Shown here in pieces: positions 6,463 through 57,467 of a DNA stretch of 64,000 nt (positions within the stretch are counted from its first letter, which is position 1; the number at the start of each line of letters is the position of its first letter). The stretch is from Promethearchaeota archaeon (lineage in GTDB: Archaea; Asgardarchaeota; Lokiarchaeia; Sigyniarchaeales; SOKP01): the NCBI GenBank assembly GCA_048940445.1, contig JBHLON010000016.1:4322-68321 (forward strand), read 5' to 3'. The translations under genes were made by a program, and so were the position numbers. The notes beneath the pieces are model-generated. The model was given only the letters and a program-made list of their open reading frames with translations, did not search any database and was not told where the DNA came from.

Positions 6463-6464
6463 TA

Positions 6465-7370: not shown

Positions 7371-7400
7371 TTTATCTTTTTTCTTTTGATTTTATTTATC
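7371..7400 (+). terminator. Candidate oligo-T transcription terminator after porB
   Basis: T-rich tract 'tttatcttttttcttttgattttattt' directly after the porB stop. Archaeal termination commonly uses oligo(dT). The AT-rich background weakens this call. Confidence 0.35.
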
Positions 7401-7473
7401 TTGAACTAAGACAAATTTGAAAATAATCCAATAAAAATTAAAGATAAAATAATTTAAGATTAATTGATCTTTC

Positions 7474-8259: not shown

Positions 8260-8322
8260 TCCTAATTATATTGTAATGCAATTCCATAAATGTTATAAAC
8301 TTGATAAAATAAAGAGAATAAT

Positions 8323-9204
8323 ATGGCTGAAGCGGCTAAACTTTTACCCAAACTTGAAAAAGAAGATATTCGAATTTTAATGGCAATCGAAATTGGAATG
8401 AAACGCTCAGAATATGTTAAAATTACAGACATTAAGTTTTATGCTAGATATCCAATTGAAGAAACTCTTTTTAGGCTGAAAAATGCTCATAAATTTGACT
8501 TGATCATACGTAATTCATCAGAATATGAAATATCCTACACTTTAAATTCAATAGGATATGATATTTTAGCTTTACATGCATTAGTAGAAAGAGGAGTCAT
8601 TAGTCATCTAGGGCCATTAATTGGAAAGGGAAAAGAATCAGACGTTTATAGTTGCATGGATGACAATGAAAATATTTTTGCTTTAAAACTTTATCGAATG
8701 GGTAGAACAAGTTTTAAAAATATTAAGAAATACCGTAGTTTTGTAGGAGAACGTACGCATCTTTCATGGTTATATATCAATAGATTAGCAGCAAGGAAGG
8801 AATTTCGGGCATTAAAAAAGATATACCAACTCAAATTAAATACACCCAAACCAATTGCCTTTAATCGTCATGCAATTGTTATGTCATATTTAAGAGGAAA
8901 GGAATTGGTATATTTTCAAAATATAAAAAAACCCCAAAAAGTATTCAATAAACTCATAAAACAAATAAAACTTATATACCAGAAAGCAAATATGATTCAT
9001 GGAGATTTGGGTGAATTCAATATCATTTTGGATGAGAAGGGAAACATTTTAATAATAGACTGGGTACAATGGGTTCCTAAAGAGCATCCAAATGCAAAAT
9101 CTCTTTTAGAAAGAGATATTAATAATATATGTAATTATTTCGAAAAAAAGTTTAATGTAATAAGCAATCCTATCAAAATATTAAAAGATTTTTATAAAAA
9201 ATAG
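8323..9204 (+). CDS. rio2: RIO-type serine/threonine protein kinase, Rio2-like (N-terminal wHTH plus RIO domain)
   Basis: An N-terminal ~90-aa winged-helix-like region, then 'GKGKESDVY' (P-loop-like), 'ALKLYRMGRTSF', 'HGDLGEFNIIL' and 'IIDWVQ' (catalytic and metal loops). Confidence 0.85.
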   Translation: MAEAAKLLPKLEKEDIRILMAIEIGMKRSEYVKITDIKFYARYPIEETLFRLKNAHKFDLIIRNSSEYEISYTLNSIGYDILALHALVERGVISHLGPLIGKGKESDVYSCMDDNENIFALKLYRMGRTSFKNIKKYRSFVGERTHLSWLYINRLAARKEFRALKKIYQLKLNTPKPIAFNRHAIVMSYLRGKELVYFQNIKKPQKVFNKLIKQIKLIYQKANMIHGDLGEFNIILDEKGNILIIDWVQWVPKEHPNAKSLLERDINNICNYFEKKFNVISNPIKILKDFYKK

Positions 9205-9214
9205 TTTGAAATGC

Positions 9215-9814
9215 TCAATTTTTAATTAAATTTCCTTGAAGAATAAGATCTTCAATATTCTCAATATTTGTTATTTTGAGATTAATTATATTTGGTTTTA
9301 AAAATAAAACTAACAATTCTAAATTTAATGTTTTCTTTAAAATCGAAAGATGAAGATTAGCCATATGTTTACTAACCATGATAATCTCCTTTATACCACT
9401 TATCATATTAGATAAATTTTGTAGTGAAGTAATAGAATATATTAAGTCAACTTTATTATTTCTAAGAGGCAAATTTTCCACGTCGGCTAAAATAAGATTT
9501 ATATTAACATTTTTAATCCAAGAACGATACTTCTTAACAAATAACTTCAACATATTTAGAGAAATATCAATCCCGATATAATTTAAAGCTTTTATATGAT
9601 AATTTTTCTTCTCTTTTAAGATAAATTCAAAAAGAAGGCCAGAACCACACCCAACGTCTAAAAAAACTTTTTTTTCTATTTGAAAACTATTAAATGTAAC
9701 TTTATATTTCTCTTCTTGAATTTTTTTATATCTTTTATCATAAAAGTCTGAGGTACTGTTATATTTTTCTATTATTTCCTTTTTCTTATTGGAATTTCCC
9801 ATATAATCATTCAA
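9215..9814 (-). CDS. Class I SAM-dependent methyltransferase
   Basis: Motif I 'FLDVGCGSGLL', and 'IGIDIS' (post-I acidic residue). About 200 aa. Confidence 0.75.
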   Translation of the reverse strand: MNDYMGNSNKKKEIIEKYNSTSDFYDKRYKKIQEEKYKVTFNSFQIEKKVFLDVGCGSGLLFEFILKEKKNYHIKALNYIGIDISLNMLKLFVKKYRSWIKNVNINLILADVENLPLRNNKVDLIYSITSLQNLSNMISGIKEIIMVSKHMANLHLSILKKTLNLELLVLFLKPNIINLKITNIENIEDLILQGNLIKN

Positions 9815-11264: not shown

Positions 11265-13292
11265 ATGGAAAAACAAGATTTAGAGAGCCTTTCACTTTCT
11301 ATAGATAAGAAAATTAAAAGATTTGAAAATGAAAAGGTCAAACAACACAAACAACGAAAAGATCAGGGAGCTATTTATACTCCGAAACAGATAGTAGACT
11401 TTATGATTATTGAGGTTTTTAAACTTTATTTTAGAGAATATTTTGGGGTACCTCGATTCAATTATTTTAATCAACTTATTTCTTTTATTCTAAAAAATCA
11501 AATAATTAAAAAGGGATTAATTGATAGGATTCCGAATTTAAAATTTTTAGATCCTGCATGTGGTACTGGAAGATTCTTAATCTCAATTGCTAAAAAGTTG
11601 GCAATAATATATAAAATTCTCTATCCAGATATGTTAGATTTTGATATAAAAAAAACCGTGATCGAAAGGCATCTTTTTGGCATTGACATTGAAAATTCTG
11701 CATTAAAGATAGCTAAATTAAGGTTAACTAAATGGCTGTTCTCAGAAGTTCAAGATATCGATGCATTAACCATACAAAAGGATAATATTGATCAGATTTC
11801 AAATAATTGTGGAATAAATTTCAACTTTTATAATTGTGATTTCCTTTTAGATTTTAATTTAACTAGTTTTGACTTTATTATTGGAAATCCTCCATATATT
11901 GAAAACAAGAAGATTTTGGATAAAAATTATAAAAAAACACTCAAAGATAGGTTTAATTCTGCTTATAGGTTATATGACCTTTCTATACTATTCATAGAAA
12001 AAGCATTAGAAATATTACGAAAGCATAATGGAATACTCTCATTTTTGACAACAAATAAATTCTTAGCAGCTGATTACGGAATAAAAATTCGACAGATTCT
12101 TATTGAAAAAACGGAAATTAGAGAGATCATAGATGTTTCTTCCTTACCAATCTTTTTTAATGTTGCCGCTTACCCAGTGATTATAACCTTAAAGAAAAAG
12201 GCTCCCATGAATAATTTAATAAAAATAAAAAAATTAAAAGATTTAAAATTAATTGAAAGAGAGCCTCCAATTACGCTTGATGAAATTTATCAAAATCAAG
12301 TTCATACTTTACCTGATAATGTAATTCCTATATCCAATAATCTAAATCTAGTTAAATTTTTATATAAAAATTATAAACAAATGGTAAATGAAATTCCTGA
12401 CCTTAAAATAGTATATAGGCCTTATGGGTTTATTAACTGGTCTAAAAATTTTAAGTACGTCTCTCAGAAATATTCATCTGATAAAGATTTATTACTAATT
12501 GGAACTGGAAACGTAGGAAAATTCCATATAAACTTCACTAAACCTATTCGAATTGCTCAACGCAAATTAAATATTTGTTATTTTAATCATAATGATACTT
12601 TTGAATCTAAATGGAAAGAGTTAAGTAGAGAAAAATTGATTTTCAGAGAAATTGCTAAAAATCTCACATTTTCCTATGATCCCGGTCTCTTTACGAATAT
12701 TACAGGATTATATTTTATTATAATTCCATCTTATAATACAAATCAAATATTTAGTTTACTACTAATTTTGAATTCAGAATTAATAAATCGGGTTTTTAAA
12801 ACTTTATTTGGGACATTACACATGGCGGGTGATTATATGCGAATAAATGGAAGCTTTATTAAACGATTGCCTATGTTAGAAATGATTCCGACATCTTTTT
12901 CAGGATTAGGAAAAACCATTCAATTCCTTTCACAGCTTAAGTCTGAATTCAAGGAAACTGATGCGATAAAGTCCTTAGAAAACATTGATATTTCATTTTT
13001 AGAAAAAATGATAAACTTTTACGACAAATTATCAAATGCTATCATAAATGGATTATATTTAAAAAAATCAAATTCTCTAGATTATAAAATATTATCTAAT
13101 TCTATAAAAAATCTACCGAAAATTCGCACAAGGTATTTTTCTCAATATTATCGTCTATCAAAACATACGATTTATTCAGAAAACGAAAGAGAGTCGACTT
13201 TTAATTCTATTCTTGATATATATAACGACTTAAAATATGACAAGCAAATTTTGAAACAGATTGAAAAATTTCAAAAATTAGTAATGCAATGA
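11265..13292 (+). CDS. N6-adenine DNA methyltransferase, gamma-class (Eco57I/TaqI-like), with a long C-terminal extension
   Basis: 'GAIYTPKQIVDFM' (motif X), 'LDPACGTGRFL' (motif I) and 'IIGNPPYI' (motif IV). No nuclease motif was recognised in it or in its neighbours. Confidence 0.8.
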   Translation: MEKQDLESLSLSIDKKIKRFENEKVKQHKQRKDQGAIYTPKQIVDFMIIEVFKLYFREYFGVPRFNYFNQLISFILKNQIIKKGLIDRIPNLKFLDPACGTGRFLISIAKKLAIIYKILYPDMLDFDIKKTVIERHLFGIDIENSALKIAKLRLTKWLFSEVQDIDALTIQKDNIDQISNNCGINFNFYNCDFLLDFNLTSFDFIIGNPPYIENKKILDKNYKKTLKDRFNSAYRLYDLSILFIEKALEILRKHNGILSFLTTNKFLAADYGIKIRQILIEKTEIREIIDVSSLPIFFNVAAYPVIITLKKKAPMNNLIKIKKLKDLKLIEREPPITLDEIYQNQVHTLPDNVIPISNNLNLVKFLYKNYKQMVNEIPDLKIVYRPYGFINWSKNFKYVSQKYSSDKDLLLIGTGNVGKFHINFTKPIRIAQRKLNICYFNHNDTFESKWKELSREKLIFREIAKNLTFSYDPGLFTNITGLYFIIIPSYNTNQIFSLLLILNSELINRVFKTLFGTLHMAGDYMRINGSFIKRLPMLEMIPTSFSGLGKTIQFLSQLKSEFKETDAIKSLENIDISFLEKMINFYDKLSNAIINGLYLKKSNSLDYKILSNSIKNLPKIRTRYFSQYYRLSKHTIYSENERESTFNSILDIYNDLKYDKQILKQIEKFQKLVMQ

Positions 13293-26398: not shown

Positions 26399-27727
26399 TT
26401 AATAGAACTTGAAATACTCGTATGCTTTATTTGGACTCTGGAAACAATATTTAACTTCTTGAAAATTTCTCCTAAATTCACTAACTTCTTTCTTTACGTT
26501 CGTAGGATCTTTATTATCAATCAATATTTTTTTAATATATTCGGCAATATCTTGCATATCATTTTTTCCCATACCAAGTCTTGTAACTTCTGAAGTACCA
26601 ATTCTTAACCCACCTGGATTTTGATAATGTCTACCTTGAGCGATATCATACGGTAAAAGATTTCGATTGAGAATGATATTTGCATCTTCTAAAAGTTTTT
26701 CTATATCTCCCCCTAAACCATGCGTTTTCTGAAATTCAGTAATATCTACAACAATTTGATGAGACTCTGTAAAACCTTTATGTTCCATTAAAACATTGAT
26801 TCCGCGCTCATATAAAGCTTGACCAAGGGCCTTTGCATTATTTATAACATTTTTATGGTAATTCTTTCCAAACTCAAGCATTTCAGCTAAAGCTATAGCC
26901 AGTCCCGCTACATTATGAAGATGATGGTTTGAAAGAAGGGCTGGAAAGGCACATGATCTCAATGTAGGTATTAAATCTTCCCTATTTGAAATTAAAGCAC
27001 CATGCTGAGGGCCTGGAAGAGTTTTATGAGTACTCATTGTCATAGCATCCACACCTTCTCTTAAAGGATCCTGAAAGTATCCTGATCCAATTAATCCAGC
27101 TACATGAGCTGCATCATATCCCACATAAGCACCAACTTCTTTAGCAACATCACCAAGTTCTTTTACAGGGTGAGGAAATAAAAATACTGAACCTCCAAAT
27201 AAAACTAATTCTGGTTTGAATTCCCTTATAATTTTAGCTGAGGCATCAATATCTAGATTCATTTCATCATTATCAAAGGCGAGATATTCCACATTTAATC
27301 CCCTAGTTGTGCCAGCTGTACCAAAAATTTCTCTCCCACTTTTTGCAAATCTCGGGCCATGAGAAATATGTCCTCCTCTAACAATAGACATACAACACAT
27401 CTTTCCATTATTATCTGAGGTAAAAGCATTATACATGGTTAAATTTGCAACAACACCTGAAACAGGACGAACATCGGCATGAATGGACTTAAAGTATTCA
27501 TTAGCTAAATCCATACATATATCTTCTATTTTATCTATATATTTACATCCAGCATATACACGTTCCCCGCTCCATCCTTCTGCATATCGGTGACTGAAAT
27601 CACAACTGCATGCCTCATCAACTGCAGGGCTAGTGATATTTTCTGAAGCGATTAAAGGAATACTTTTAGAAAACCAATCATGATGTTCTACTAATAAATT
27701 TCTAATCTCTTTAACCTTATTCTTCAC
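26399..27727 (-). CDS. glyA: Serine hydroxymethyltransferase
   Basis: 'LIASENITSPAV', and the PLP-lysine motif 'STHKTLPGPQHG'. 442 aa. Confidence 0.9.
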   Translation of the reverse strand: MKNKVKEIRNLLVEHHDWFSKSIPLIASENITSPAVDEACSCDFSHRYAEGWSGERVYAGCKYIDKIEDICMDLANEYFKSIHADVRPVSGVVANLTMYNAFTSDNNGKMCCMSIVRGGHISHGPRFAKSGREIFGTAGTTRGLNVEYLAFDNDEMNLDIDASAKIIREFKPELVLFGGSVFLFPHPVKELGDVAKEVGAYVGYDAAHVAGLIGSGYFQDPLREGVDAMTMSTHKTLPGPQHGALISNREDLIPTLRSCAFPALLSNHHLHNVAGLAIALAEMLEFGKNYHKNVINNAKALGQALYERGINVLMEHKGFTESHQIVVDITEFQKTHGLGGDIEKLLEDANIILNRNLLPYDIAQGRHYQNPGGLRIGTSEVTRLGMGKNDMQDIAEYIKKILIDNKDPTNVKKEVSEFRRNFQEVKYCFQSPNKAYEYFKFY

Positions 27728-31848: not shown

Positions 31849-32778
31849 ATGGAAAAAATTATCAAATTAATTGTCTCAGGTTTAGATAACGCAGGCAAAA
31901 CTTCAATCTTAACAGCTTTAGATAAAAAATACGATTTTCATAAGGAAATAATCTCGCTTACTCCAACTATTCGAGTTGAATATCATGCAACTGAATTTTT
32001 AGGACAACGTGTGATCTTTTGGGATTGTGGTGGTCAACAAAAGTACAGGGAATTATATCAAAGTAAACCAAACTTCTATTTTGATGGAACAGATTTGCTT
32101 CTTTATGTTATAGATATTCAAGACAAAGAGAGATATAATATGTCCCTTGAATATTTAGATATGGTATTAGGTTATTTTATAACCAATAAAATTGATGTGC
32201 CTTTAATTGTAACTTTTCATAAATACGATCCTGAAATAAGAAGTGATGATACTTACCTAGAAGAGATAAAAATCTTAAGAAATCAAATATTGGACAAATA
32301 TTCGAATCTTAAAATTCTATTCCAACAGACTTCTATATATGATATAATCTCGATTATTCAATTAGTTTCGTATGGTTTATCTGTATTTGATGAAACATTC
32401 TTTGATTTGTCAGATTTGCTTGAAAATTATCTACAGATATTCAATAGTAAATCTCTTATTATTTTCGATAAAAATGGCATTATTATAAGTGAATTCTATA
32501 ATAGTGAGATACAACCAGAGCATTATATCCACCTATTAGAATCTATAAAAGAGCATCTATTTTTACTTAAAAGAATGCAAGAAGAATCTTATGAGGCAGA
32601 ATATAACTTATCAACAAATAGTACTGGTTTGTTATCATATTTACATCGATTGACAATCGGAAGAGAATCACTATTCATATCTGTAATTTTACAAGAAAAA
32701 CAAAAAGATAATTTTTTAGAGAAATTCTCAGAATTCCTAACAAAAATAGAAGGCATATTAACTCCTATTTTATACTAA
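31849..32778 (+). CDS. Rag/Gtr-family small GTPase with C-terminal (roadblock-like) domain
   Basis: G1 'GLDNAGKT', G3 'WDCGGQ', G4 'FHKYD' (His in place of Asn, as in Rag/Gtr HKxD), 'TSIYD', then a ~140-aa C-terminal domain. The total of 309 aa matches RagA/Gtr1 size. Confidence 0.75.
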   Translation: MEKIIKLIVSGLDNAGKTSILTALDKKYDFHKEIISLTPTIRVEYHATEFLGQRVIFWDCGGQQKYRELYQSKPNFYFDGTDLLLYVIDIQDKERYNMSLEYLDMVLGYFITNKIDVPLIVTFHKYDPEIRSDDTYLEEIKILRNQILDKYSNLKILFQQTSIYDIISIIQLVSYGLSVFDETFFDLSDLLENYLQIFNSKSLIIFDKNGIIISEFYNSEIQPEHYIHLLESIKEHLFLLKRMQEESYEAEYNLSTNSTGLLSYLHRLTIGRESLFISVILQEKQKDNFLEKFSEFLTKIEGILTPILY

Positions 32779-41722: not shown

Positions 41723-42403
41723 TTACATTAAGACTTTTAATCCATCTTTAACTTTATAAGTTCGATTAAAACGATCAATTTCGATAAATCGTTTTATTTC
41801 AAGATTATTTAAGAAATCTCTCATTTCAATTGGATCTTTCTTTAGTTTTTCTGCTAAGCCTTCGATATTTTCTTCATAAGTACGTAATATTTCTATTAAT
41901 GAAGAATAATTTTCATAAATTTGATTAACAAGCTGTTTTAATACCTCATCAAGATTTTCTCCAGTTTTCGTGCTCGTGGGAAAAATTACAGCTTCTTGAG
42001 GTAAATAATTTTGAGCACGAACGACTTCAGGATGTCTTGCTCCTGCCATATCTTGCTTATTTGCTAAAAATATAATGGGAACATCTTCATTAATTACTTT
42101 TCTTATGGAATTCAAAATTATGATCGCATCTTCATCTTTCTCAGGATGGACAGCATCAAAAATAAAAATAATCCCATCAGTTCCCTTTAAAACAACATCT
42201 CTCATCACATTAAATCTTAACAATCCAGGAGTTCCGAAAAGAAATACATCAAAGCCATTTAGTTTTACACAGCCTAAGTCCATTCCTACTGTATAGTACT
42301 TATTATCTCTTGCCTTAGCCTCTACATTTAATGCATTTTCATCAAAATGCTTAATGAAAGATGATTTTCCACATTGCAATGGGCCTGATATAACTATTTT
42401 CAT
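41723..42403 (-). CDS. Small GTPase of the MglA/CvnD-like (COG2229) type with a C-terminal helical/wHTH-like tail
   Basis: G1 'GPLQCGKSS', G3 'FGTPGLLRF', G4 'ANKQD', G5-like 'TSTK'. A ~60-aa C-terminal extension. Confidence 0.75.
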   Translation of the reverse strand: MKIVISGPLQCGKSSFIKHFDENALNVEAKARDNKYYTVGMDLGCVKLNGFDVFLFGTPGLLRFNVMRDVVLKGTDGIIFIFDAVHPEKDEDAIIILNSIRKVINEDVPIIFLANKQDMAGARHPEVVRAQNYLPQEAVIFPTSTKTGENLDEVLKQLVNQIYENYSSLIEILRTYEENIEGLAEKLKKDPIEMRDFLNNLEIKRFIEIDRFNRTYKVKDGLKVLM

Positions 42404-42815: not shown

Positions 42816-45800
42816 ATGGTAAGTAGTAAAATATTGATTATAGGTGGCGGAATTTCCGGTATAGAAGCAAGTCTTACGTTAGCTGAACAAGGTTATAAGG
42901 TTATACTTGTAGAAAAAACATCTTCTGTTGGTGGTAGGATGGCACAGTTAGATAAAACTTTTCCTACTTTAGATTGTTCAATCTGTATTCTGGCTCCCAA
43001 AATGGTTGAAGTATCTCGTCATCCAAACATCGAATTATTAGCATATTCTGAGGTACAAGAGATAAATGGTGAAGAAGGAAATTTTGATGTTAAAGTGCTT
43101 AAAAAGGCTAAATATGTAAATTGGGAAGCTTGTACTGGTTGTGCATCGTGTACTGAAAAATGTCCAATGAAGAAAATCCCTTCTGAATTTGAGGAGGGTA
43201 TGGGCAATAGAACAGCAATCTATATCCCATTCCCTCAAGCTGTTCCACGTAAAGCTGTAATAGACCCAGAAAAATGTCTATTTTTAACTAAAAATGCGTG
43301 TAAAATATGTGAAAAAGAGTGTGAAGCTGGAGCTATTAATTGGAATGATAAGGATGAAATTATAAATTACAACGTAGCTGCCATAATTGTGGCAACTGGA
43401 TTTGACCAACTTGATCCTTCCGTATTAGATAGATATCATTATGGGGAATATTCAAACGTAATAACTGCTATGCAATATGAACGCTTATTAAGTGCATCTG
43501 GTCCTACAGGGGGTGAAATTCTACGTCCTTCAGATAAGGCCCATGCAAATAGAATTGCATTTATTAGTTGTGTAGGATCAAGAAATGAAGATCTATGTTC
43601 ATATTGTTCTAAATTCTGTTGCATGTATCAAACTAAAGAGGCTGTAGTCACTCGAGAACATGCTCCAAACACAAATGTCACTATTTATTTTAATGATCTC
43701 AGAGTCATTGGAAAAAATCAAGATGAATTTACTGTACGGGCAAGAGAAGAATATAATTTAAAGTATCATCACGGAATACCCGGAGATGTTAGAGAAAATC
43801 CAGAAAATCATAATCTTATTGTAAAATCAGCTAATTTAGATACCGGTGAGGTTGATGTTGATGAATATGACCTCGTAGTACTAGCTAATGCTGTAACTCC
43901 ACGAAAAGACGCTGATAAACTTGCTAGCATTTTAGGGATCGAGCAAAACGAATTTGGATTTTTTAGAACTGCTAATTCAACTGAAGATTTAAGATCTACT
44001 AAGCCTGGAATTTATGTTACTGGTTCGTGTCAATCTCCTGATGATATAGCTAATTCAGTCGCGAAAGCAGGTGCTGCTGCTGTTCTAGCAGCAAGCCATG
44101 CTACACCTTTAAGTGAAGAGGAACAAAAAGTCGAATTACCCCCTTTAAAAGAAATTTTATCACATGATGAAGCTCGTATAGGTGTGTTCATTTGTAGATG
44201 TGGTATCAATATTGCGGGATATATTGATGTACCCTCTTTAGTAGAGTACGCTAAAACTCTTCCTAGTGTAGTTTATGCTGACGAAAATAAATATAGTTGC
44301 TCTCAATTAACCCAAGATATCATAAAAGAAAAAATTGAAGAGTTAAGTTTAAACCGTGTAGTAGTTGCTGCATGTACACCACGGACTCATGAGCCTTTAT
44401 TTCAAAAAACTATAAGAGAAGCTGGATTAAATGAGTATCTGTTTAATTTTGTTAGTATACGTGAATTAGATTCTTGGGTTCATATGAAAGACAATAAGAG
44501 GGCAACTGATAAAGCAAAAGATCTAATAAGAATGGGTGTAGCAAGAGTAATTTATCAAAAACCAGAATATAAAATTAGAGGAAATGTAGTTCCAGAGGCT
44601 TTGGTAGTCGGTGGGGGTATTACTGGAATAAATGCAGCAATAGAAATTTCTAATAAAGGATTTAGAGTACATCTGGTTGAAAAAGAAGATAAATTAGGTG
44701 GTCAATTAAATTTAATTTATAAAATTAACTCTGATCGAATCGATTCTGAAAAATATTTAGAAAATCAACTGAGAGAATATAATCAACTTAAAAACATAAA
44801 TACTTATCTAAATTCAGAATTAATAGATGTAAAAGGTTCTATCGGTGATTTTAATGTTAAAGTTAGAAATTCTGCGGATAACAAAAACATTGACTTGAAT
44901 GTGGGCACCATACTAATCACCACTGGTGCATATGAATATAAACCCATAGGTTGGTACCATTATGGTGAAAATGAAAATGTTATTACTCAATTAGAATTAT
45001 CCGGAAAATTGAGAAATAACGAGTTAAAAGATGGTGAAACTCTTGTTTTTATACATTGTGTAGGGTCTCGTCAACCAGAAGGTGGTAATGGAGTCACATA
45101 CTGTTCTCTGATTTGTTGTTCTGAATCAATTAGACATGCTTTATATGTAAAAGAGAACTATCCTAATTCAAATATTTACGTATTATATAGAGATATACGG
45201 GTTGGAACTGAGGAAGAATCCTTTTATTGGAAAGCTCGAGAAAATGTGAATTATATACGATTTAATGAGTATCCAACTGTTGATATTGAAAATCATCAAC
45301 TAAAAGTAAGAGTGCAAGATATCTTAACTCAAACCGATCTTACAATAGAAGCAGATAAAGTAGTACTTTCGACACCATTAATCCCCCACGATACTCAAAA
45401 ATTAGGAGAGATGATCAAATGTGCTAGAGATCAGAATGGATTTTTCTTAGAAGCTCATGTAAAATTGAGGCCTGTTGATTTCGCTACAGATGGAATCTAT
45501 TTGGCAGGAACATGTCATGGACCGAAAGGAATCTCTGATTCTATATCGCAAGCTAGGGGTGCTGCTGCCCATGCCTTAATACCCCTGATTTCTGGAGAAG
45601 TTGAGAATGAACCGTTAGTCTCAATAGTTAATCCTGCTTTATGCATTGCTTGCCAAAAATGTGAAGAAGCCTGCAATTTCGGAGCAATTGGGGTTAATTT
45701 TGATAATTCAATCTTAGTGTCTCAATCTAACCCTTTATTGTGTAAGGGATGCGGTGATTGTTCAGCCGCCTGTCCAACGGGAGCTATTATTATGCGTCAT

Positions 45801-46304
45801 TTTGCAGATGAACAAATATATCCTATGATTAAAGAAGCTGTTCGAGGAGAATTTATTGATGAGCGACCTCGTATAATTGCATTTTTATGCAATTGGTGTA
45901 GTTATGCTGGTGCAGATACATGTGGAGTAAGCCGATTCCAATATCCGACTAATATAAGACCTATTAGAGTAATGTGTACTGGGAGGATACCAAAGCATTT
46001 TATTTTACAAGCCTTTTTAGAAGGTGCTGACGGCGTATTAATTGGTGGATGTCATATTGGCGATTGTCATTACTTGGAGGGTAATTATGATATGTTAAGA
46101 CGATATAATGAAATTCGGGAAATGTTAGAAAAAGTAGGAATCAATGCAGAACGTATTCGACTAGAATGGGTTTCTGCAAGTGAAGGAAAGCGTTTTTCAC
46201 AGATAGTAACGGAATTCGTTACTAAAATAAAGCAACTTGGACCTTTACCTAAAACTGGTGATAAGGTAGAACTGAAAAAGGAGAAGATAAAGGAGGGGAC
46301 ATAA
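42816..46304 (+). CDS. hdrA: Tandem HdrA-like flavoprotein fused to an MvhD-like domain (heterodisulfide reductase subunit A family)
   Basis: There are two dinucleotide-binding motifs: 'IIGGGISGIEAS' (nt ~42840) and 'VVGGGITGINAA' (nt ~44610). Other HdrA-type motifs are 'GGRMAQLDKTFPTLDCSIC', two 'CVGSR...C..CC' segments, the mid-protein 'RIGVFICRCGINIAG' HdrA N-domain motif, and ferredoxin motifs 'CIACQKCEEAC'/'CKGCGDCSAACP'. The C-terminal 'IIAFLCNWCSYAGAD...RVMCTGR...GGCHIGDCHY' is MvhD/FlpD-like. Confidence 0.85.
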   Translation: MVSSKILIIGGGISGIEASLTLAEQGYKVILVEKTSSVGGRMAQLDKTFPTLDCSICILAPKMVEVSRHPNIELLAYSEVQEINGEEGNFDVKVLKKAKYVNWEACTGCASCTEKCPMKKIPSEFEEGMGNRTAIYIPFPQAVPRKAVIDPEKCLFLTKNACKICEKECEAGAINWNDKDEIINYNVAAIIVATGFDQLDPSVLDRYHYGEYSNVITAMQYERLLSASGPTGGEILRPSDKAHANRIAFISCVGSRNEDLCSYCSKFCCMYQTKEAVVTREHAPNTNVTIYFNDLRVIGKNQDEFTVRAREEYNLKYHHGIPGDVRENPENHNLIVKSANLDTGEVDVDEYDLVVLANAVTPRKDADKLASILGIEQNEFGFFRTANSTEDLRSTKPGIYVTGSCQSPDDIANSVAKAGAAAVLAASHATPLSEEEQKVELPPLKEILSHDEARIGVFICRCGINIAGYIDVPSLVEYAKTLPSVVYADENKYSCSQLTQDIIKEKIEELSLNRVVVAACTPRTHEPLFQKTIREAGLNEYLFNFVSIRELDSWVHMKDNKRATDKAKDLIRMGVARVIYQKPEYKIRGNVVPEALVVGGGITGINAAIEISNKGFRVHLVEKEDKLGGQLNLIYKINSDRIDSEKYLENQLREYNQLKNINTYLNSELIDVKGSIGDFNVKVRNSADNKNIDLNVGTILITTGAYEYKPIGWYHYGENENVITQLELSGKLRNNELKDGETLVFIHCVGSRQPEGGNGVTYCSLICCSESIRHALYVKENYPNSNIYVLYRDIRVGTEEESFYWKARENVNYIRFNEYPTVDIENHQLKVRVQDILTQTDLTIEADKVVLSTPLIPHDTQKLGEMIKCARDQNGFFLEAHVKLRPVDFATDGIYLAGTCHGPKGISDSISQARGAAAHALIPLISGEVENEPLVSIVNPALCIACQKCEEACNFGAIGVNFDNSILVSQSNPLLCKGCGDCSAACPTGAIIMRHFADEQIYPMIKEAVRGEFIDERPRIIAFLCNWCSYAGADTCGVSRFQYPTNIRPIRVMCTGRIPKHFILQAFLEGADGVLIGGCHIGDCHYLEGNYDMLRRYNEIREMLEKVGINAERIRLEWVSASEGKRFSQIVTEFVTKIKQLGPLPKTGDKVELKKEKIKEGT

Positions 46305-46307
46305 AAA

Positions 46308-46841
46308 ATGACTGAAATGTTAAAGAAAAATGCAAAGGAATTAGATGTAAACTTTCGCTATGAAATAGCAAAGAAGGTAGGGGCAAAATCCCTACTAAAA
46401 TGTATTCAATGCGGAGTATGTAGTTCTGGTTGTACTGTTACTGAATATGTTGATTTACAGCCACATCGAGTAGTTGCTTCATGCCTTCTAGGTTTAAAAC
46501 AAGAAGTTTTATCTAGTAACGCAATTTGGACTTGTTCATTATGTCATAGATGTACTGAAAGATGTCCGAAAAATGTTGATTATTCTTTCATTTTAGCATT
46601 ATTACGAAATTTGGCTGCAAAAGAAGGTAAAATCCCTAAAGAATATTCGAGTACAATTGAAGTTATTTATGATAATGGCTTTGTGGTACCCTATACTGAA
46701 GGTATGAAGAAGAATATTGATCGAAGGAGAGAAAGATTAGGATTACCAGAAATAGTTCCCCCCAATCTAGAAGAAATTAAACTAATAATTGATAAAACAG
46801 GATTAGGAAATCTTGTAATTAAAAAAGAGGTGGATAAATAA
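46308..46841 (+). CDS. hdrC: HdrC-like iron-sulfur subunit
   Basis: 'CIQCGVCSSGC' and 'CSLCHRCTERCP'. 177 aa, starting 3 nt after hdrA. Confidence 0.8.
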   Translation: MTEMLKKNAKELDVNFRYEIAKKVGAKSLLKCIQCGVCSSGCTVTEYVDLQPHRVVASCLLGLKQEVLSSNAIWTCSLCHRCTERCPKNVDYSFILALLRNLAAKEGKIPKEYSSTIEVIYDNGFVVPYTEGMKKNIDRRRERLGLPEIVPPNLEEIKLIIDKTGLGNLVIKKEVDK

Positions 46842-47726
46842 ATGGTAGATTATGCTTTATTTCTAGGGTGTACTATACCTTTGAAGCTCCCTCATCTTGA
46901 AAAAGCTTTTAGAGATGTTGCTAGTATTTTAGGATTAAGCTTAAAAGAAATGGAAGGAGTAAGCTGTTGTCCGGAACCAGTTTCTCTACAATCCCTAAAT
47001 ATTGATACATGGATGACTTTGGGTGCGAGAAACCTGTCCATAGCCGAAAAGATGGGATTAGATGTGTTAACTATCTGCTCTGGATGCTATGAGACCCTTA
47101 AAACAGTAAGTGTACTATTAGAAGAAGATAAAGATTATTTAGATAAGATTAATGTCTTATTGAAAAAGATTAATCATGAGTATAAAGGTAAAACAAAAGT
47201 TTATCATTTTGTAGAATTATTTACTGAACCTAAAATGCTTAGTAAAATTAAAAGCTTAGTAGTAAAACCTTTAGATGATTTAACCCTTGCTGTGCATTAT
47301 GGTTGTCACCTTGTAAGACCAAGTAAAATCATGCGTTTTGATCACCCGGAAAAACCAGAAAAAATAGATATTATACTTCAGGCACTCGGGGCAAATACCA
47401 TAAATTTTGCAACTAAATTAGAATGTTGTGGTTACTGCGCTCGTCTCCAAGAGGAAATCGGAGAAAAACTTGTAGAAGAAAAAATGACAGAACTATGTGA
47501 ATTAACTGAAGATGTTGATGCACTAATTGCCGTTTGCCCAGCTTGCGTTACACAATATGATAGAAAAGAAAAAATCATTGCTAGAAAAACAGGAAAGGAA
47601 TTAGATATACCTGTTCTTTATTTAGCAGAGCTTATGGCATTAGCTTTAGGAGTAAGTATTGAAGATCTTAGTCTGACAAATAGAAGTGTGAAACCTAACA
47701 AATTAATTGAAAAGTTAAGTATATAA
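46842..47726 (+). CDS. hdrB: HdrB-like subunit (two CCG domains)
   Basis: 'FLGCTIP', 'CCPEP', 'HYGCHLVRP', 'CCGY' and 'CPACV'. Abuts the hdrC stop. Confidence 0.85.
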   Translation: MVDYALFLGCTIPLKLPHLEKAFRDVASILGLSLKEMEGVSCCPEPVSLQSLNIDTWMTLGARNLSIAEKMGLDVLTICSGCYETLKTVSVLLEEDKDYLDKINVLLKKINHEYKGKTKVYHFVELFTEPKMLSKIKSLVVKPLDDLTLAVHYGCHLVRPSKIMRFDHPEKPEKIDIILQALGANTINFATKLECCGYCARLQEEIGEKLVEEKMTELCELTEDVDALIAVCPACVTQYDRKEKIIARKTGKELDIPVLYLAELMALALGVSIEDLSLTNRSVKPNKLIEKLSI

Positions 47727-47790: not shown

Positions 47791-48489
47791 ATGATAATAA
47801 CCCAATTAAAAGATATTGATGAATTATATGAATATATAAAGCCATATTCATCCATTTTAGTAGCTGGTTGTGATGGATGTTGTCAACCTCCCCGATCTTT
47901 AAATGAGGCAAAATTATTAGGTCAACTTCTTGAATTAAAGGCTAGAACTGAAGGTAAAAATCTTAAATGGAAAGCTATTACAGTCTTAAGACAATGTGAT
48001 GATAGAATTGTGGCAACGACTATACGACCTGTTTTAGAAGATTACGAAGCAATTATTACCCTAGCATGTGGTTTAGGCGTTGTAATGATGAATAAAGTAC
48101 TTCCGCAGAAACTAACATTTCCTGCTCAAAATAGCATGTTTGGAGGAGCTCAAAATAATGGTGAAAACAATTTTATCGAATTATGTGAAACTTGTGGTGA
48201 CTGTATCGTTGGAGAAACTGGAGGAGTATGTCCACGAGCGGGTTGTGCTAAACATTTAAGTAATGGACCATGTGGAGGTATGGTTGATGGGATGTGTGAA
48301 GTTAAAGGGTACACTGTTCCATGTGCATGGGTTGAAATATGGAAACGTTTGAAAGAATTCAATAGACTAGATTTATTTAAAAAATATAGAGGACCAAGAG
48401 ATTATAGAACTTCAACAAGCCCAGGATATATGGAAATCTATAAAGAATATGTTTCTGAAGAAGAACAAAGTAAAGAGGTGAAAAATTAA
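47791..48489 (+). CDS. metV: MetV-like Cys-rich small subunit of methylenetetrahydrofolate reductase (copy 1)
   Basis: 'CETCGDCIVGETGGVCPRAGCAKHLSNGPCGGMVDGMCEV' is the MTHFR_C-type zinc-ribbon signature. Immediately followed by metF. Confidence 0.75.
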   Translation: MIITQLKDIDELYEYIKPYSSILVAGCDGCCQPPRSLNEAKLLGQLLELKARTEGKNLKWKAITVLRQCDDRIVATTIRPVLEDYEAIITLACGLGVVMMNKVLPQKLTFPAQNSMFGGAQNNGENNFIELCETCGDCIVGETGGVCPRAGCAKHLSNGPCGGMVDGMCEVKGYTVPCAWVEIWKRLKEFNRLDLFKKYRGPRDYRTSTSPGYMEIYKEYVSEEEQSKEVKN

Positions 48490-49428
48490 ATGGGAAAAAG
48501 GCCAGCCTTCAGTAATCTTTGCAAGACAATTGAATCCGGAAAATTTGTTATAACGGGAGAACTGGAACCTAAGAAGATTTTAGATTTAAGTGAAATTCTT
48601 CATGGTGCTGAAGAAATGAAAAAGACTGGAAAAATTGTGGCTGCAAATGTCACTGATGGTCCACAAGGGGATGCATATATGTCTTCATTAGTTCCAAGTT
48701 ATTTAATCCAAGAAAAAGTAGGTATTGAGGCAGTATGGCAGGTAACAGTACGAGATCGTAACCGTGTAGCACTATTTGGAGATGTAATTGCTGGAGCAGT
48801 ATTAGGTTTGAAAAATATACTAACCCTTACAGGAGATCATACCGCACTCGGAGATCATAAAAAAGGAAGACCGGTATACGATATTGATAGCACACAATTC
48901 TGTGAAATGCTTTCTATTATGATTGACAATGGAACAGATTATGAAGGAAACGAATTAAAGGGTGGCAAGATTGAAATGAACTATGGATGTGTCGCAAATC
49001 CAAATAGTAACCCTAGAGAACCAGAGATACTAAAAGTTGGTCGGAAAGTTGAACAAGGAGTTGATTTCATTCAGACACAAACTGCATTTGATATTGATGA
49101 TGCTAAAGATTTCCTAAAAGATCTTGAACAATTTAACGTTCCGGTTCTATTAGGTATTTTTCCACTCAAATCTTTTGGTATTGCTGATTATTTCGATAAA
49201 TTTATTCCTGGAGTAAGTGTTCCAAAAGACCTTCTCAAATCTTTAAAAAAGGCAGAAAAAGATAATAAGGGAGATAAAAAAGCTAAATATGCCGCTATTG
49301 ATAAGATCAATATAGAATTTTTTGAACCATTTATTAATGAAATCAAAAAAACCACGAAAGCCGCGGGTATTCATTGTATGGCTGTAGAATATGAGAGATT
49401 ATTTGATCCATTATTGAAAGATTTCTAA
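48490..49428 (+). CDS. metF: MetF-like methylene-tetrahydrofolate (or -pterin) reductase (copy 1)
   Basis: TIM-barrel MTHFR-like motifs 'AANVTDGP', 'TVRDRN', 'NILTLTGDH', 'DFIQTQ' and 'LLGIFPL'. 312 aa. Confidence 0.8.
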   Translation: MGKRPAFSNLCKTIESGKFVITGELEPKKILDLSEILHGAEEMKKTGKIVAANVTDGPQGDAYMSSLVPSYLIQEKVGIEAVWQVTVRDRNRVALFGDVIAGAVLGLKNILTLTGDHTALGDHKKGRPVYDIDSTQFCEMLSIMIDNGTDYEGNELKGGKIEMNYGCVANPNSNPREPEILKVGRKVEQGVDFIQTQTAFDIDDAKDFLKDLEQFNVPVLLGIFPLKSFGIADYFDKFIPGVSVPKDLLKSLKKAEKDNKGDKKAKYAAIDKINIEFFEPFINEIKKTTKAAGIHCMAVEYERLFDPLLKDF

Positions 49429-49479: not shown

Positions 49480-49938
49480 ATGAAAAATTTGGATGAGAAA
49501 GATAAAAAAATATTAGAAATGTTGATAGAGGATTCACGTAGACCTTATCATGAGATAGGGAAAGAAGTTGATCTCTCTGAATCTACTGTTAGGAAACGTG
49601 TAATTAGATTACAGGAAGATGGAGTAATCGAAAAATTCACAATTAAAGTATGTCGTGAGGAAGAAAGATGTATTTACGCTTTTGTAACCTTATTACCTAA
49701 AAATCAATCAGAAATCAAAGAGTTAATTAGAGAGACTCAGATTTTGCCTCAATGCGAAGAAGTGTATTTCTTAGCAGGAGAGTGTGGGATCTTACTGAAA
49801 GTCAACGTTCCTGAGATTACAGAACTCGATGCGTTAATAGAAAATTTTCGAGGTAGAAGTGATATTAAAAGTGTAGAGAGGGTGTGTGTTGTACTTAAAC
49901 CTATTAAAACTTTGACTCAGAATGGTATTTCACCTTAA
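49480..49938 (+). CDS. Lrp/AsnC-family transcriptional regulator
   Basis: 'LDEKDKKILEMLIEDSRRPYHEIGKEVDLSESTVRKRVIRLQEDGVI'. Lies 51 nt downstream of metF on the same strand. Confidence 0.8.
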   Translation: MKNLDEKDKKILEMLIEDSRRPYHEIGKEVDLSESTVRKRVIRLQEDGVIEKFTIKVCREEERCIYAFVTLLPKNQSEIKELIRETQILPQCEEVYFLAGECGILLKVNVPEITELDALIENFRGRSDIKSVERVCVVLKPIKTLTQNGISP

Positions 49939-55841: not shown

Positions 55842-56513
55842 ATGGTCGTAATTACTACTAAAAAACCAGATGAAGAAGTTTTTGAAGCAATAGAAAATTA
55901 TAATGTAAAGAAATTAACAATTGTATCTTGTGGAACTTGCGCTGCTTTATGTCAGACAGGAGGAACTGAGGGAGCAGAAGAGTGGAGAAAAAAGTTACAA
56001 GATAAGGGCTATGAAGTAGAAGCTGCAATTGTATCAGAAGATGTATGTGATAATAGAGTAATGAAAAAAGATTTGCGGAAAATTGATGATGAAATAAAAG
56101 CATCTGATGCTATTTTGACATTAAGTTGTGGACTTGGTGTTCAATCAATTGTAGAGGTACTTCAGAAAAAGTATCCAGAAAAACCAGTTCTCATTTCTAA
56201 TAATACTAAATTTATTGGAATGACAGAAAGAATCGGTCGATTCTATATGCGATGCAGGGCCTGTGGTGATTGCTATTTGAATTATTCTGGGGGGATTTGT
56301 CCAATTGCAACATGTGCTAAGGGTTTAATGAATGGTCCGTGTGGAGGAATGGTTGACGGAAAGTGCGAAGTGGGTAATTATGAAAGAGATTGTGGGTGGA
56401 TTTTGATCTTTAATCGATTAAAAGCAATAGGCAGATTGGACCTATTTAGTGAATTGCGAGATGCTCGAGATTGGTCTGAATCTGGTCATCAACAAGAAGT
56501 CATATTTAGATAG
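55842..56513 (+). CDS. metV: MetV-like Cys-rich small subunit (copy 2)
   Basis: 'CRACGDCYLNYSGGICPIATCAKGLMNGPCGGMVDGKCEV' is collinear with copy 1 at 47791. The N-terminal 'SCGTCAALC' and 'LSCGLGVQ' parallel 'GCDGCCQ' and 'LACGLGVV' in copy 1. Confidence 0.75.
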   Translation: MVVITTKKPDEEVFEAIENYNVKKLTIVSCGTCAALCQTGGTEGAEEWRKKLQDKGYEVEAAIVSEDVCDNRVMKKDLRKIDDEIKASDAILTLSCGLGVQSIVEVLQKKYPEKPVLISNNTKFIGMTERIGRFYMRCRACGDCYLNYSGGICPIATCAKGLMNGPCGGMVDGKCEVGNYERDCGWILIFNRLKAIGRLDLFSELRDARDWSESGHQQEVIFR

Positions 56514-56528
56514 GGGTGAAACAATAGT

Positions 56529-57467
56529 ATGACAGAAGTTAAAGTTTTTTCAAAATTAGGACAGGCTCTTGCAAAAGGAGAATTTATTTTAACTGGTGAA
56601 TTGGAGCCTGAGAAAACTTGTGATCTTTCTCATACAGTTCAAGAAGCTAAGGAAATGGCTCCCTTTGTTATTGCTGCTAATGTAACTGACAGTCCACTTG
56701 GTATTGTTACTATCAATAGTTTAGCATCATCTTATATTATACAAAGAGACGCTGGTTTGGAATGCATATGGCAGTTGACTGTTAGAGATGTTAATAAACT
56801 TGGAATATCTGGAATGATAATGGGAGCACAAGCTCTTGGGATACATAATATTCTTTCCTTAACAGGAGATCATCCAGCATTGGGAGATATGCCTGAAAGT
56901 AAACCTGTTTTTGATTTAGATTCTGCTACTCTAGTAAAATTAGTCAGAGAAATGGTAGATACTGGTAAGATCAATAATTATGAAATAGAAGCACCACCAA
57001 GACTTCATGTTGGTGCTGCTGCTAATCCAAATGCTGAACCAATGGAAGCAGAGGTGTTGAAGATTGGACGTAAAGCCAAAGCAGGAGCTGAATTTTTACA
57101 GACTCAAGTAGTGTATGACTTAGATCGTACGATTGAATTTTTAACAGCAATTAAGAGATATGGTGTACCTATCCTATTAGGGATATTTCCAATGAAGAGT
57201 TATGCGATAGCAAAAGGTTTTGATGAATTTGTCCCAGGAGTCTCCGTACCCAAAGATATTCTTGCGAAATGGAAATCGATCAAAACTGAATATTCCAATG
57301 ATAAGAAGATGCAAAAAGAAGCTTATGATTATGCAAATTATGAATTTTTTAAACCATTTATTACAGAACTTAGACAAAAGAATCTTCTAGCCGGGATTCA
57401 CTGTATGGCAGTCCATTACCCTCGAATTTTCCCAAAGTTAGAAGAGATAATAAAAAGTATTAATTAA
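56529..57467 (+). CDS. metF: MetF-like methylene-tetrahydrofolate (or -pterin) reductase (copy 2)
   Basis: Same length (312 aa) and the same motifs as copy 1: 'AANVTDSP', 'TVRDVN', 'NILSLTGDH', 'EFLQTQ' and 'LLGIFPM'. Confidence 0.8.
   Translation: MTEVKVFSKLGQALAKGEFILTGELEPEKTCDLSHTVQEAKEMAPFVIAANVTDSPLGIVTINSLASSYIIQRDAGLECIWQLTVRDVNKLGISGMIMGAQALGIHNILSLTGDHPALGDMPESKPVFDLDSATLVKLVREMVDTGKINNYEIEAPPRLHVGAAANPNAEPMEAEVLKIGRKAKAGAEFLQTQVVYDLDRTIEFLTAIKRYGVPILLGIFPMKSYAIAKGFDEFVPGVSVPKDILAKWKSIKTEYSNDKKMQKEAYDYANYEFFKPFITELRQKNLLAGIHCMAVHYPRIFPKLEEIIKSIN

Follow-up and report, generated by a model that had tools for sequence, protein, structure and literature searches.

Known HdrA systems and the tandem HdrA of an Asgard archaeon

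In the energy economy of anaerobes, electron bifurcation by HdrA plays a central part. Here we describe a tandem HdrA from an Asgard archaeon, encoded at 42816..46304 on the forward strand of the window, which is the whole stretch of 64,000 nucleotides (nt) analysed (Promethearchaeota archaeon, contig JBHLON010000016.1, positions 4,322 to 68,321). The protein has 1162 amino acids (aa) and contains two HdrA flavin modules and a fused MvhD domain. It is likely that this chain is a single-chain asymmetric HdrA dimer with MvhD, and the bifurcating or confurcating subunit of an Hdr-type methylene-tetrahydrofolate (methylene-H4F) or methylene-methanopterin reductase composed of HdrA, HdrC, HdrB, MetV, and MetF.

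The canonical HdrA is a protein of ~650 aa with an N-terminal domain, a domain resembling thioredoxin reductase (TrxR) and carrying an inserted ferredoxin and a Cys pair, and a C-terminal ferredoxin. It is an obligate homodimer with two flavin adenine dinucleotides (FADs), and the electron paths cross between the protomers (PMC9012536; PMC13580544). In the 2017 crystal structure, as reported by Chadwick et al., the N-terminal cluster takes one of its ligands, Cys197, from the partner protomer's flavin domain (PMC9012536). In the 2026 cryo-electron microscopy (cryo-EM) study of Methanothermobacter marburgensis, HdrA's N- and C-terminal domains together with MvhAGD constitute a "mobile arm". The MvhD [2Fe-2S] cluster of the arm nears the Cys202'/Cys205' pair and FAD' of the partner protomer. 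The HA3 cluster in the N-terminal domain of the arm acts as a shuttle, taking up the low-potential electron at FAD' and passing it to HA5'/HA6' of the partner's inserted ferredoxin, and the high-potential electron exits via HA4' to HdrC and HdrB (PMC13580544). How the two crossed paths are gated in the symmetric dimer is still under cryo-EM study. The literature identifies bifurcating HdrA flavins by an E356/K409 pair (Appel 2021, as quoted in PMC9430772).

Double HdrA proteins are known from acetogens and from anaerobic methanotrophic archaea (ANME). In Moorella thermoacetica and Sporomusa ovata, the Hdr-type methylene-H4F reductase is encoded by the cluster hdrCBA-mvhD-metVF (Rosenbaum 2022, PMC9430772; Mock 2014, as quoted in later papers). 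The order of domains in this HdrA is an extra N-terminal TrxR-like module, an MvhD-like domain, a TrxR domain without the inserted ferredoxin, and a C-terminal ferredoxin. The extra module of Moorella contains a ferredoxin domain as well, together with a GltD NAD(P)H/FAD insertion. Both modules have the E/K pair in Moorella, whereas only the first does in S. ovata. Pull-downs indicated that MetVF interacts with HdrA, HdrB, and MvhD (all PMC9430772). Two FADs per HdrA are reported for Moorella (PMC5861303).

In ANME, HdrA3/4, HdrA5+6, and HdrA12+13 are fused or tandem paralogs in which the Cys197 ligand and the N-terminal cluster domain are complementary (Chadwick et al. 2022, PMC9012536). These pairs are read as heterodimers that break the two-fold symmetry, within one chain in the case of HdrA3/4. 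The same authors remark that the Moorella HdrA is also of this complementary-loss kind (PMC9012536). Thus, two flavin modules with complementary loss, which a sequence-only reading of the window had offered as a novelty, were already described (PMC9430772, PMC9012536). The contrast drawn in that reading with a canonical HdrA of "single flavin" is misleading, as the canonical form is an obligate homodimer with two FADs. What the window protein adds to the known double-HdrA architecture is the Asgard lineage and one extra fusion, and no new principle.

According to a survey in 2018, bifurcating Met complexes are found mainly in Firmicutes and Proteobacteria (PMC6085437). Our literature search found no paper specifically on the Asgard tandem HdrA-MvhD protein. 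The database names for the Asgard protein are generic: "hydrogenase iron-sulfur subunit", "FAD-dependent oxidoreductase", and "heterodisulfide reductase subunit A".

Division of the HdrA elements between two modules

The open reading frame (ORF) at 42816..46304 starts with ATG and includes no internal stop codon. The sequences in PDB were searched with phmmer, and the solved HdrA of Methanothermococcus thermolithotrophicus, 5odc_A, was used as the reference for alignment. The features of the gene are as follows, with the basis of each in parentheses.

42816..46304, + strand: hdrA, tandem HdrA-HdrA-MvhD fusion (ORF, Pfam/NCBIfam, PDB alignments, AlphaFold2 model)
42816..44105, + strand: module 1, aa 1-430, TrxR-like FAD core with inserted ferredoxin and without N-terminal domain (5odc_A alignment, 8rwn_A match)
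42975..42986, + strand: Cys54/Cys57 pair in DCSIC (position counted on the 5odc_A alignment)
43113..43340, + strand: inserted ferredoxin, aa 100-175, 2x[4Fe-4S], C106/109/112/116 and C154/162/165/169 (cysteines invariant or nearly so)
43479..43637, + strand: E222 and K274, equivalents of E356/K409, with the HA4-type site C252/C264/C268/C269 between them (5odc_A alignment)
44106..44171, + strand: linker between the modules, aa 431-452 (between PDB-aligned pieces; mean predicted local distance difference test (pLDDT) score of 85-89 in 10-residue blocks)
44172..44570, + strand: HdrA N-terminal (MvhD-like) domain, aa 453-585, with C460, C462, C495, and C520 as the HA3 "shuttle" cluster site (5odc_A alignment; cysteines invariant or nearly so)
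44583..45605, + strand: module 2 flavin domain, aa 590-930, with the G599/G601/G604 Rossmann motif and the HA4-type site C748/C763/C767/C768 (Pfam, conservation)
45621..45845, + strand: C-terminal ferredoxin, aa 936-1010, 2x[4Fe-4S], C943/946/949/953 and C976/979/982/986 (Pfam Fer4, 5odc_A alignment; cysteines invariant)
45864..46259, + strand: fused MvhD domain, aa 1017-1148, [2Fe-2S] site (Pfam FlpD E 9e-53; PDB MvhD E 1e-49 to 1e-52)

All 13 of the motifs quoted in the sequence-only reading were found at the expected places:

aa 49-57: FPTLDCSIC, module 1
aa 106-117: CTGCASCTEKCP, inserted ferredoxin of module 1
aa 154-169: CLFLTKNACKICEKEC, inserted ferredoxin of module 1
aa 251-256: SCVGSR, module 1
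aa 261-269: CSYCSKFCC, module 1
aa 398-411: GIYVTGSCQSPDDI, module 1
aa 454-472: RIGVFICRCGINIAGYIDV, HdrA N-terminal domain
aa 516-529: VVAACTPRTHEPLF, HdrA N-terminal domain
aa 597-608: VVGGGITGINAA, module 2
aa 747-752: HCVGSR, module 2
aa 763-768: CSLICC, module 2
aa 876-886: FFLEAHVKLRP, module 2
aa 893-906: GIYLAGTCHGPKGI, module 2

In the comparison with PDB sequences, the chain splits into four pieces, and the pieces that match 5odc_A are not colinear with it. Residues 2-377 correspond to 5odc_A 142-512, the TrxR-like FAD domain including the inserted ferredoxin. Residues 451-616 correspond to 5odc_A 2-167, the N-terminal cluster domain and the start of the Rossmann fold, and residues 871-1007 to 5odc_A 512-648, the end of the FAD domain and the C-terminal ferredoxin. 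The last piece, aa 1017-1148, matches the MvhD chains (5odc_D, 8rvu_F) with E ~1e-49. Pfam matches agree with this layout: two separate Rossmann/FAD matches at aa ~5-43 and ~595-631, Fer4 families at aa 943-991, and FlpD (MvhD) at aa 1020-1142 (E 9e-53). The claimed architecture of two tandem HdrA flavin modules and a fused MvhD in one chain is thus confirmed by the ORF, Pfam, and the PDB alignments, at a level well above chance. The domain annotation and the comparison with a solved HdrA, both proposed as checks, gave the claimed layout, in which a 2x[4Fe-4S] ferredoxin and then an MvhD-like domain follow module 2.

Module 1 keeps the elements associated with bifurcation. Cys54/Cys57 corresponds to Cys194/Cys197 of M. 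thermolithotrophicus HdrA and Cys202/Cys205 of M. marburgensis HdrA. Conservation of motifs was examined in 36 tandem representatives at 32-48% identity, and additionally in 92 aligned sequences. The Cys54/Cys57 pair is kept in 35 of the 36 diverse tandem homologs. E222 is E in 58/58 Asgard sequences and in 33/34 diverse tandem homologs; K274 is K in 58/58 and 32/34, respectively. G10, G12, and G15 of module 1 are invariant.

Module 2 is different. Its cysteines within aa 590-940 are at positions 748, 763, 767, 768, 869, and 900 only, four of which constitute the CVGSR...CSxxCC site. Because this region holds only six cysteines, module 2 has neither the Cys pair nor the inserted ferredoxin, and the reported absence of "TLDCSxC" and the inserted-ferredoxin cysteines is borne out. 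In the alignment of the two modules, module 2 skips the ferredoxin insert. At the positions of the E/K signature, module 2 has S729 and R773, which are fixed in 58/58 Asgard sequences, while the same positions in the wider family are mostly E (22/34) and K (17/34). The flavin domains of the two modules are only 26-31% identical to each other. A recent internal duplication is therefore ruled out, and the tandem arrangement is ancient. In the fused MvhD domain, C1028, H1080, and D1083 are conserved and correspond to Cys16, His68, and Asp71 of M. marburgensis MvhD, counted on 9sw2_D.

Every Fe-S cysteine and each of the two GxGxxG motifs shows little or no variation among the 36 representatives and among the 92 aligned sequences. 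The FAD glycine signatures and the flavin-adjacent [4Fe-4S] site of both modules are invariant in the 92 homologs. By its Rossmann/FAD Pfam match and invariant GxGxxG motif, module 2 has a putative FAD site at the sequence level. Alignments, cysteine positions, and conservation together support the claim of two HdrA-type flavin modules with a complementary split of the canonical elements.

The AlphaFold2 model built from the 92 sequences has a pLDDT of 90.4 and a predicted template modelling (pTM) score of 0.90. Its comparison with the solved HdrA core chain 8rwn_A gave a template modelling (TM) score of 0.97, a root mean square deviation of 1.0 A, and 46% identity; judging from size and identity, this match is attributed to module 1 of the model. 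The whole HdrA chain 5odc_A fits with a TM score of 0.79. Overall, identity to the solved methanogen HdrA and MvhD chains is 35-46%, and TM scores are 0.79-0.97. The HdrA chains of the cryo-EM "state 2" fit the model clearly better (8rvu_A 0.79 and 7bkb_A 0.78 TM) than those of "state 1" (8rvy_A 0.59 and 7bkd_A 0.60 TM). Because of this better fit, the arm domains of module 2 are considered to take a state-2-like pose in the model.

The protein shares several characteristics with the Moorella and Sporomusa HdrA. A TrxR-like FAD module (aa 2-377) precedes the N-terminal cluster domain (aa 451-616). The C-terminal unit is composed of the N-terminal cluster domain, TrxR, and ferredoxin, and the inserted ferredoxin is missing from it. 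Signatures for two putative FAD sites are present. The gene cluster likewise includes hdrC, hdrB, mvhD (here a fused domain), metV, and metF, and this composition is kept in two other Asgard loci, L081 and L082. As in S. ovata, E/K is found in module 1 only, and there is no GltD insert. As in Moorella, module 1 has the inserted ferredoxin, which S. ovata does not have. Unlike Moorella, the protein has no GltD-like NAD(P)H/FAD insertion, so it does not belong to the Moorella subtype. It differs from both in its archaeal host and in its MvhD, which is part of the chain at the C-terminus and not the product of an adjacent gene. The window protein is a third subtype of the HdrA of Hdr-type methylene-H4F reductase.

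As in ANME HdrA3/4, two HdrA units are found in one chain with complementary loss of Cys197 and the N-terminal domain. Here, the unit with the Cys pair comes first and the unit with the N-terminal domain second, the reverse of the order in the ANME fusions as given in the text of PMC9012536. The partner here is MetVF, in contrast to the FdhAB-like or HdrD-like partners of the ANME clusters (PMC9012536). Every domain and cofactor site of HdrA and MvhD in the methanogen MvhAGD-HdrABC, Fdh-Hdr, and Elp-Hdr complexes (5ODC, 7BKB, 8RVU, 9SW2-6) is present. Unlike in the canonical HdrA, these elements are distributed over two non-identical modules: the canonical set of six [4Fe-4S] sites and FAD is divided between them, with an additional HA4-type site and a second FAD site. 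Also unlike the canonical complexes, only a single one of the two symmetric paths is left, and the chain is partnered with MetVF rather than with a heterodisulfide-producing methanogenesis pathway. HdrB and HdrC here score below the equivalog cut-offs for CoB-CoM heterodisulfide reductase, in contrast to the canonical partners. The C-terminal MvhD is shared with Methanosarcina acetivorans HdrA2, which itself has a single flavin module and the canonical order.

Proposed electron path and its alternatives

The domain map places all elements of the arm in module 2: the N-terminal domain bearing the HA3 site, the C-terminal 2x[4Fe-4S] ferredoxin, and MvhD in fused form. All elements of the core are in module 1: FAD with E222/K274, Cys54/Cys57, the HA4-type cluster, and the inserted 2x[4Fe-4S] ferredoxin. 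Because the E/K flavin signature is kept only in module 1, this module is proposed as the bifurcating core. From this division and its conservation we infer a dimer-like packing of the two modules and the direction of electron flow. Of the two crossed paths of the dimer, one would be retained, in which the arm of module 2 serves the core of module 1. Electrons from a donor would enter MvhD and pass to the FAD of module 1, where they would be split. One branch would run from the HA4 site of module 1 to HdrC/HdrB and on to MetV/MetF for the reduction of methylene-H4F. The other would run through the HA3 shuttle to the inserted ferredoxin and then to a ferredoxin. The flavin domain of module 2 would probably be a scaffold that stands in for the dimer partner, and it may also be a relay that does not bifurcate. 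The sequence-only reading had suggested a rewired electron path; the asymmetry this implies holds, but the chain is better interpreted as an HdrA dimer fused and cut to one path than as a new path.

The most likely reaction is the reduction of methylene-H4F, or methylene-tetrahydromethanopterin (methylene-H4MPT), via HdrCB and MetVF, coupled to the reduction of ferredoxin at the insert of module 1. The reverse, confurcating direction is equally possible. The absence of the GltD domain rules out NADH, entering by that route, as the donor. The Asgard operon points to a specific, putative coupling between C1-pterin reduction and ferredoxin.

Several observations weigh against a single-chain dimer of this function. 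The 41 annotated of the 57 window ORFs of at least 120 aa include no gene for a hydrogenase and none that is FrhB-like or FdhB-like, and the GltD/NADH insert is absent from the window HdrA according to Pfam and the alignment. The strict conservation of the FAD and cluster motifs in module 2 suggests that it may be more than a scaffold. Even for the bacterial enzymes, bifurcation is a proposal; the Sporomusa enzyme appears membrane-linked, and a second acceptor is yet to be assigned in Moorella (PMC9430772).

The conservation of module 2 bears on an alternative in which both flavins are active. The FAD and [4Fe-4S] cluster of module 2 would then constitute a second redox site, either an entry for a two-electron donor or an exit to MetV/MetF or to a second HdrCB, and the chain would run two reactions instead of one path with a scaffold. 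The GxGxxG motif of module 2, the G893/G898 region, and the four HA4-type cysteines are invariant across 92 sequences, E/K is kept in module 2 of many non-Asgard tandem homologs, and Moorella has E/K in both modules (PMC9430772). The Sporomusa HdrA, which has no GltD, is still weakly active as NADH:benzyl viologen oxidoreductase (PMC9430772). However, with neither the Cys pair nor an inserted ferredoxin, module 2 lacks an own outlet for low-potential electrons, and S729/R773 replace the signature in every one of the Asgard sequences. The "CVGSR" cluster motif (aa 748-752), located at the NAD(P)H position of TrxR, would also disfavour direct binding of NAD(P)H. We regard two active flavins as unlikely. 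Bifurcation might also not take place at all, as proposed for Sporomusa ovata: Hdr and MvhD would wire MetVF to another, possibly membrane-associated partner, and HdrA would be a relay. In S. ovata, MvhD is largely membrane-associated and membranes carry H2-dependent methylene-H4F reduction (PMC9430772), and no electron donor is assigned for the window protein. On the other side, nothing linked to bifurcation is missing from module 1, which has E222/K274 and the Cys pair as well as the inserted ferredoxin absent from S. ovata, and a covalently fused MvhD leaves no detachable membrane linker. A pure relay thus appears quite improbable, more so than two active flavins.

Two further explanations have very little weight. 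An ordinary CoM-S-S-CoB heterodisulfide reductase subunit of the Methanosarcina HdrA2 type could be read from the NCBIfam model NF040770, which the protein matches with 1180.6 bits against a cut-off of 1100, and from the C-terminal MvhD fusion shared with HdrA2. This score is, however, the sum of three stretches on a model of 777 positions and is inflated by the second flavin module; the best single stretch is aa 2-426 against model positions 138-557. HdrA2 membership based on this score is ruled out, as the two modules add up and the match is not colinear. The architecture differs, the partner genes are metV and metF, the host is an Asgard archaeon, HdrB and HdrC are under the CoB-CoM equivalog cut-offs, and mcr genes are not seen among the annotated window ORFs, making an ordinary heterodisulfide reductase highly improbable. 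The probability is practically negligible that two adjacent genes were joined by an error of sequencing, assembly, or reading frame, for which the unusual length is the only argument. More than 120 independent clusters of the same length are colinear with the protein, which refutes such an error, and dozens of 50%-identity clusters across phyla, colinear over aa 5-1006, also rule out a gene-fusion artefact. The module junction, for which read mapping had been advised, is genuine: independent assemblies share the length, and the AlphaFold2 model is confident across it. As a side observation, tandem HdrA proteins could be misnamed HdrA2 by automatic pipelines, given the inflated NF040770 score.

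The single-chain dimer with one path is accordingly the reading we carry forward. A narrower version is tentative, and we consider it somewhat more probable than two active flavins while still rather unlikely: that the Asgard clade has a minimal covalent "half-of-sites" bifurcation unit with the second flavin retired (S729/R773 in 58/58 sequences), which couples reduction of methylene-H4F/H4MPT to ferredoxin with a donor other than NADH, e.g., H2 via a group 3c hydrogenase. If true, the unit would be the as yet unassigned energy-coupling step of the Asgard Wood-Ljungdahl pathway, and the mobile-arm model of HdrA bifurcation could be tested on a system that has a single path by nature. One arm, one core, and MvhD in one chain make a natural asymmetric construct for studies of the mechanism.

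Operon, distribution, and neighbouring genes

The genes of the operon are arranged on the + strand as hdrA-hdrC-hdrB-metV-metF, with gaps of 3, 0, 64, and 0 nt. Downstream of hdrA are:

46308..46841, + strand: hdrC-like, 177 aa, two CxxCxxCxxxC motifs, starts 3 nt past the hdrA stop (Pfam Fer4_8, Fer4_17)
46842..47726, + strand: hdrB-like, 294 aa, both CCG motifs intact, C10..CC42/43..C79xxC82 and C155..CC195/196..C232xxC235 (Pfam CCG x2)
47791..48489, + strand: metV, 232 aa, small subunit of MetVF-type methylene-H4F reductase (PF12225, E 2e-28)
48490..49428, + strand: metF, 312 aa, methylenetetrahydrofolate reductase (MTHFR), abuts metV (Pfam MTHFR E 2e-26; PDB MTHFR matches)
49480..49938, + strand: Lrp/AsnC-type regulator, kept at the cluster end in other Asgard metagenome-assembled genomes (MAGs) (Pfam; synteny in L081 and L082)

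The hdrB-like product scores 274 bits against TIGR03288, below the cut-off of 345, and the hdrC-like product 105 bits against TIGR03290, below the cut-off of 160. A solved MetVF-Hdr complex was not found by sequence: among PDB entries, MetF matches ordinary MTHFRs only and MetV matches none. The scan for sigma-70 promoters and terminators gave results below the expectation from shuffled sequences, and the sigma-70 model is uninformative for an archaeon. The same gene order is observed in the Asgard MAGs L081, L082, and L083, including the upstream genes for thermosome, phosphoenolpyruvate carboxykinase (PEPCK), and small GTPase.

The identical protein in NCBI is a MAG protein labelled "Promethearchaeota archaeon". 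The best 120 homology matches are 1121-1170 aa long (all but one at least 1146 aa), with 75-100% identity along 95-100% of the length. Their source assemblies (NCBI, JGI, ENA, and Logan) are labelled Promethearchaeota, Loki-, Thor-, Hermod-, Hod-, and Heimdallarchaeota. Such identity over ~1160 aa is very strong conservation across MAGs labelled as different Asgard phyla, and these labels may be unreliable. The operon is thus very strongly conserved (75-100% over 1160 aa) in archaea that are relatives of the eukaryotic host lineage. A sharp gap in identity separates the more than 120 Asgard clusters at 75-100% (P0003-P0120) from P0121 (Helarchaeota) and P0122 at 46-48%.

The architectures were surveyed by an exhaustive search of 50%-identity cluster representatives, and several length classes were observed. 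Dozens of proteins of ~950-1090 aa have both modules and no MvhD, and align with aa 5-1006 of the query in a single colinear stretch. Proteins of 1140-1176 aa with a fused MvhD are few, e.g., P0121 (Helarchaeota), and P0130 and P0281 (Desulfonatronum). Proteins of ~1500 aa, e.g., P0129 (Syntrophaceae), have a large insertion within the inserted ferredoxin of module 1; in relatives of ~1495 aa, ~480 extra residues are aligned between query aa 171 and 162. Tandem HdrA is thus widespread in many bacterial and archaeal phyla, and MvhD fusions are few, which answers the question of distribution left by the sequence-only reading. Other arrangements are also found. P0128 has the N-terminal domain and the Cys-pair core first, and the second module after them. 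P0132 and P0136 have the inserted ferredoxin in both modules. P0180, P0209, and P0214 have "module 2 + MvhD" alone, with long unrelated C-terminal extensions. P0129 has a GltD-like insertion in module 1. Several gene arrangements seem to have led to the complementary double-HdrA design.

Gene neighbourhoods were examined at 80 loci, sampled from GTDB species genomes with a query profile of nine sequences; the sample does not include close Asgard relatives. The archaeal hosts of colinear tandem HdrA in this sample are Asgard, Thermoplasmata/Methanomassiliicoccales, Bathyarchaeia, and a Methanosarcina. The bacterial hosts include many Desulfobacterota, Chloroflexota, Planctomycetota, Thermotogota, Elusimicrobiota, and Acidobacteriota. 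MvhD is outside the hdrA frame in 69/80 loci, mostly as a separate gene 5-200 nt downstream, and is fused in only four. MetV or MetF is nearby in only 5/80 loci, so tandem HdrA does not need MetVF as a neighbour; in 26/80, HdrC and/or HdrB are nearby but neither MetV nor MetF. These counts, 5 versus 26, indicate that tandem HdrA is a general module and that MetVF is one partner among others. In L021 (Methanosarcina sp. DH2, 6001-9491) and L034 (Methanomassiliicoccales, 5878-9425), a tandem HdrA of ~1014-1031 aa is followed by a separate mvhD of ~148 aa. HdrC/HdrB-like genes are upstream in L021, and ORFs of 409 and 524 aa are downstream.

The window has a G+C content of ~30%, and carries genes for a thermosome subunit, GTP-dependent PEPCK, and eukaryote-like small GTPases, in agreement with an Asgard host. 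A second metV-metF pair is located at 55842-56513 and 56529-57467 on the + strand, ~6.4 kb downstream of the stop of the operon metF at 49428. The second MetF is 45% identical to the operon MetF. Because no hdr genes adjoin this pair, the genome has two kinds of MetVF, one linked to Hdr and the other standing alone.

A serine hydroxymethyltransferase, a C1-pterin enzyme (26399-27727, - strand), is a plausible supplier of methylene-pterin, and a two-gene pair similar to 2-oxoacid:ferredoxin oxidoreductase (5191-7370, + strand) is a plausible supplier of reduced ferredoxin. A Ras/Arf-like small GTPase (41723-42403, - strand) is directly upstream of hdrA, and its position is kept in L081 and L082. 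An Arf or Gtr1-RagA-like small GTPase (31849-32778, + strand) is ~10 kb upstream of hdrA. Unrelated to hdrA are an Eco57I/MmeI-type DNA methyltransferase with a TaqI-like specificity domain (11265-13292, + strand) and a PAS-domain histidine kinase (2356-4599, - strand).

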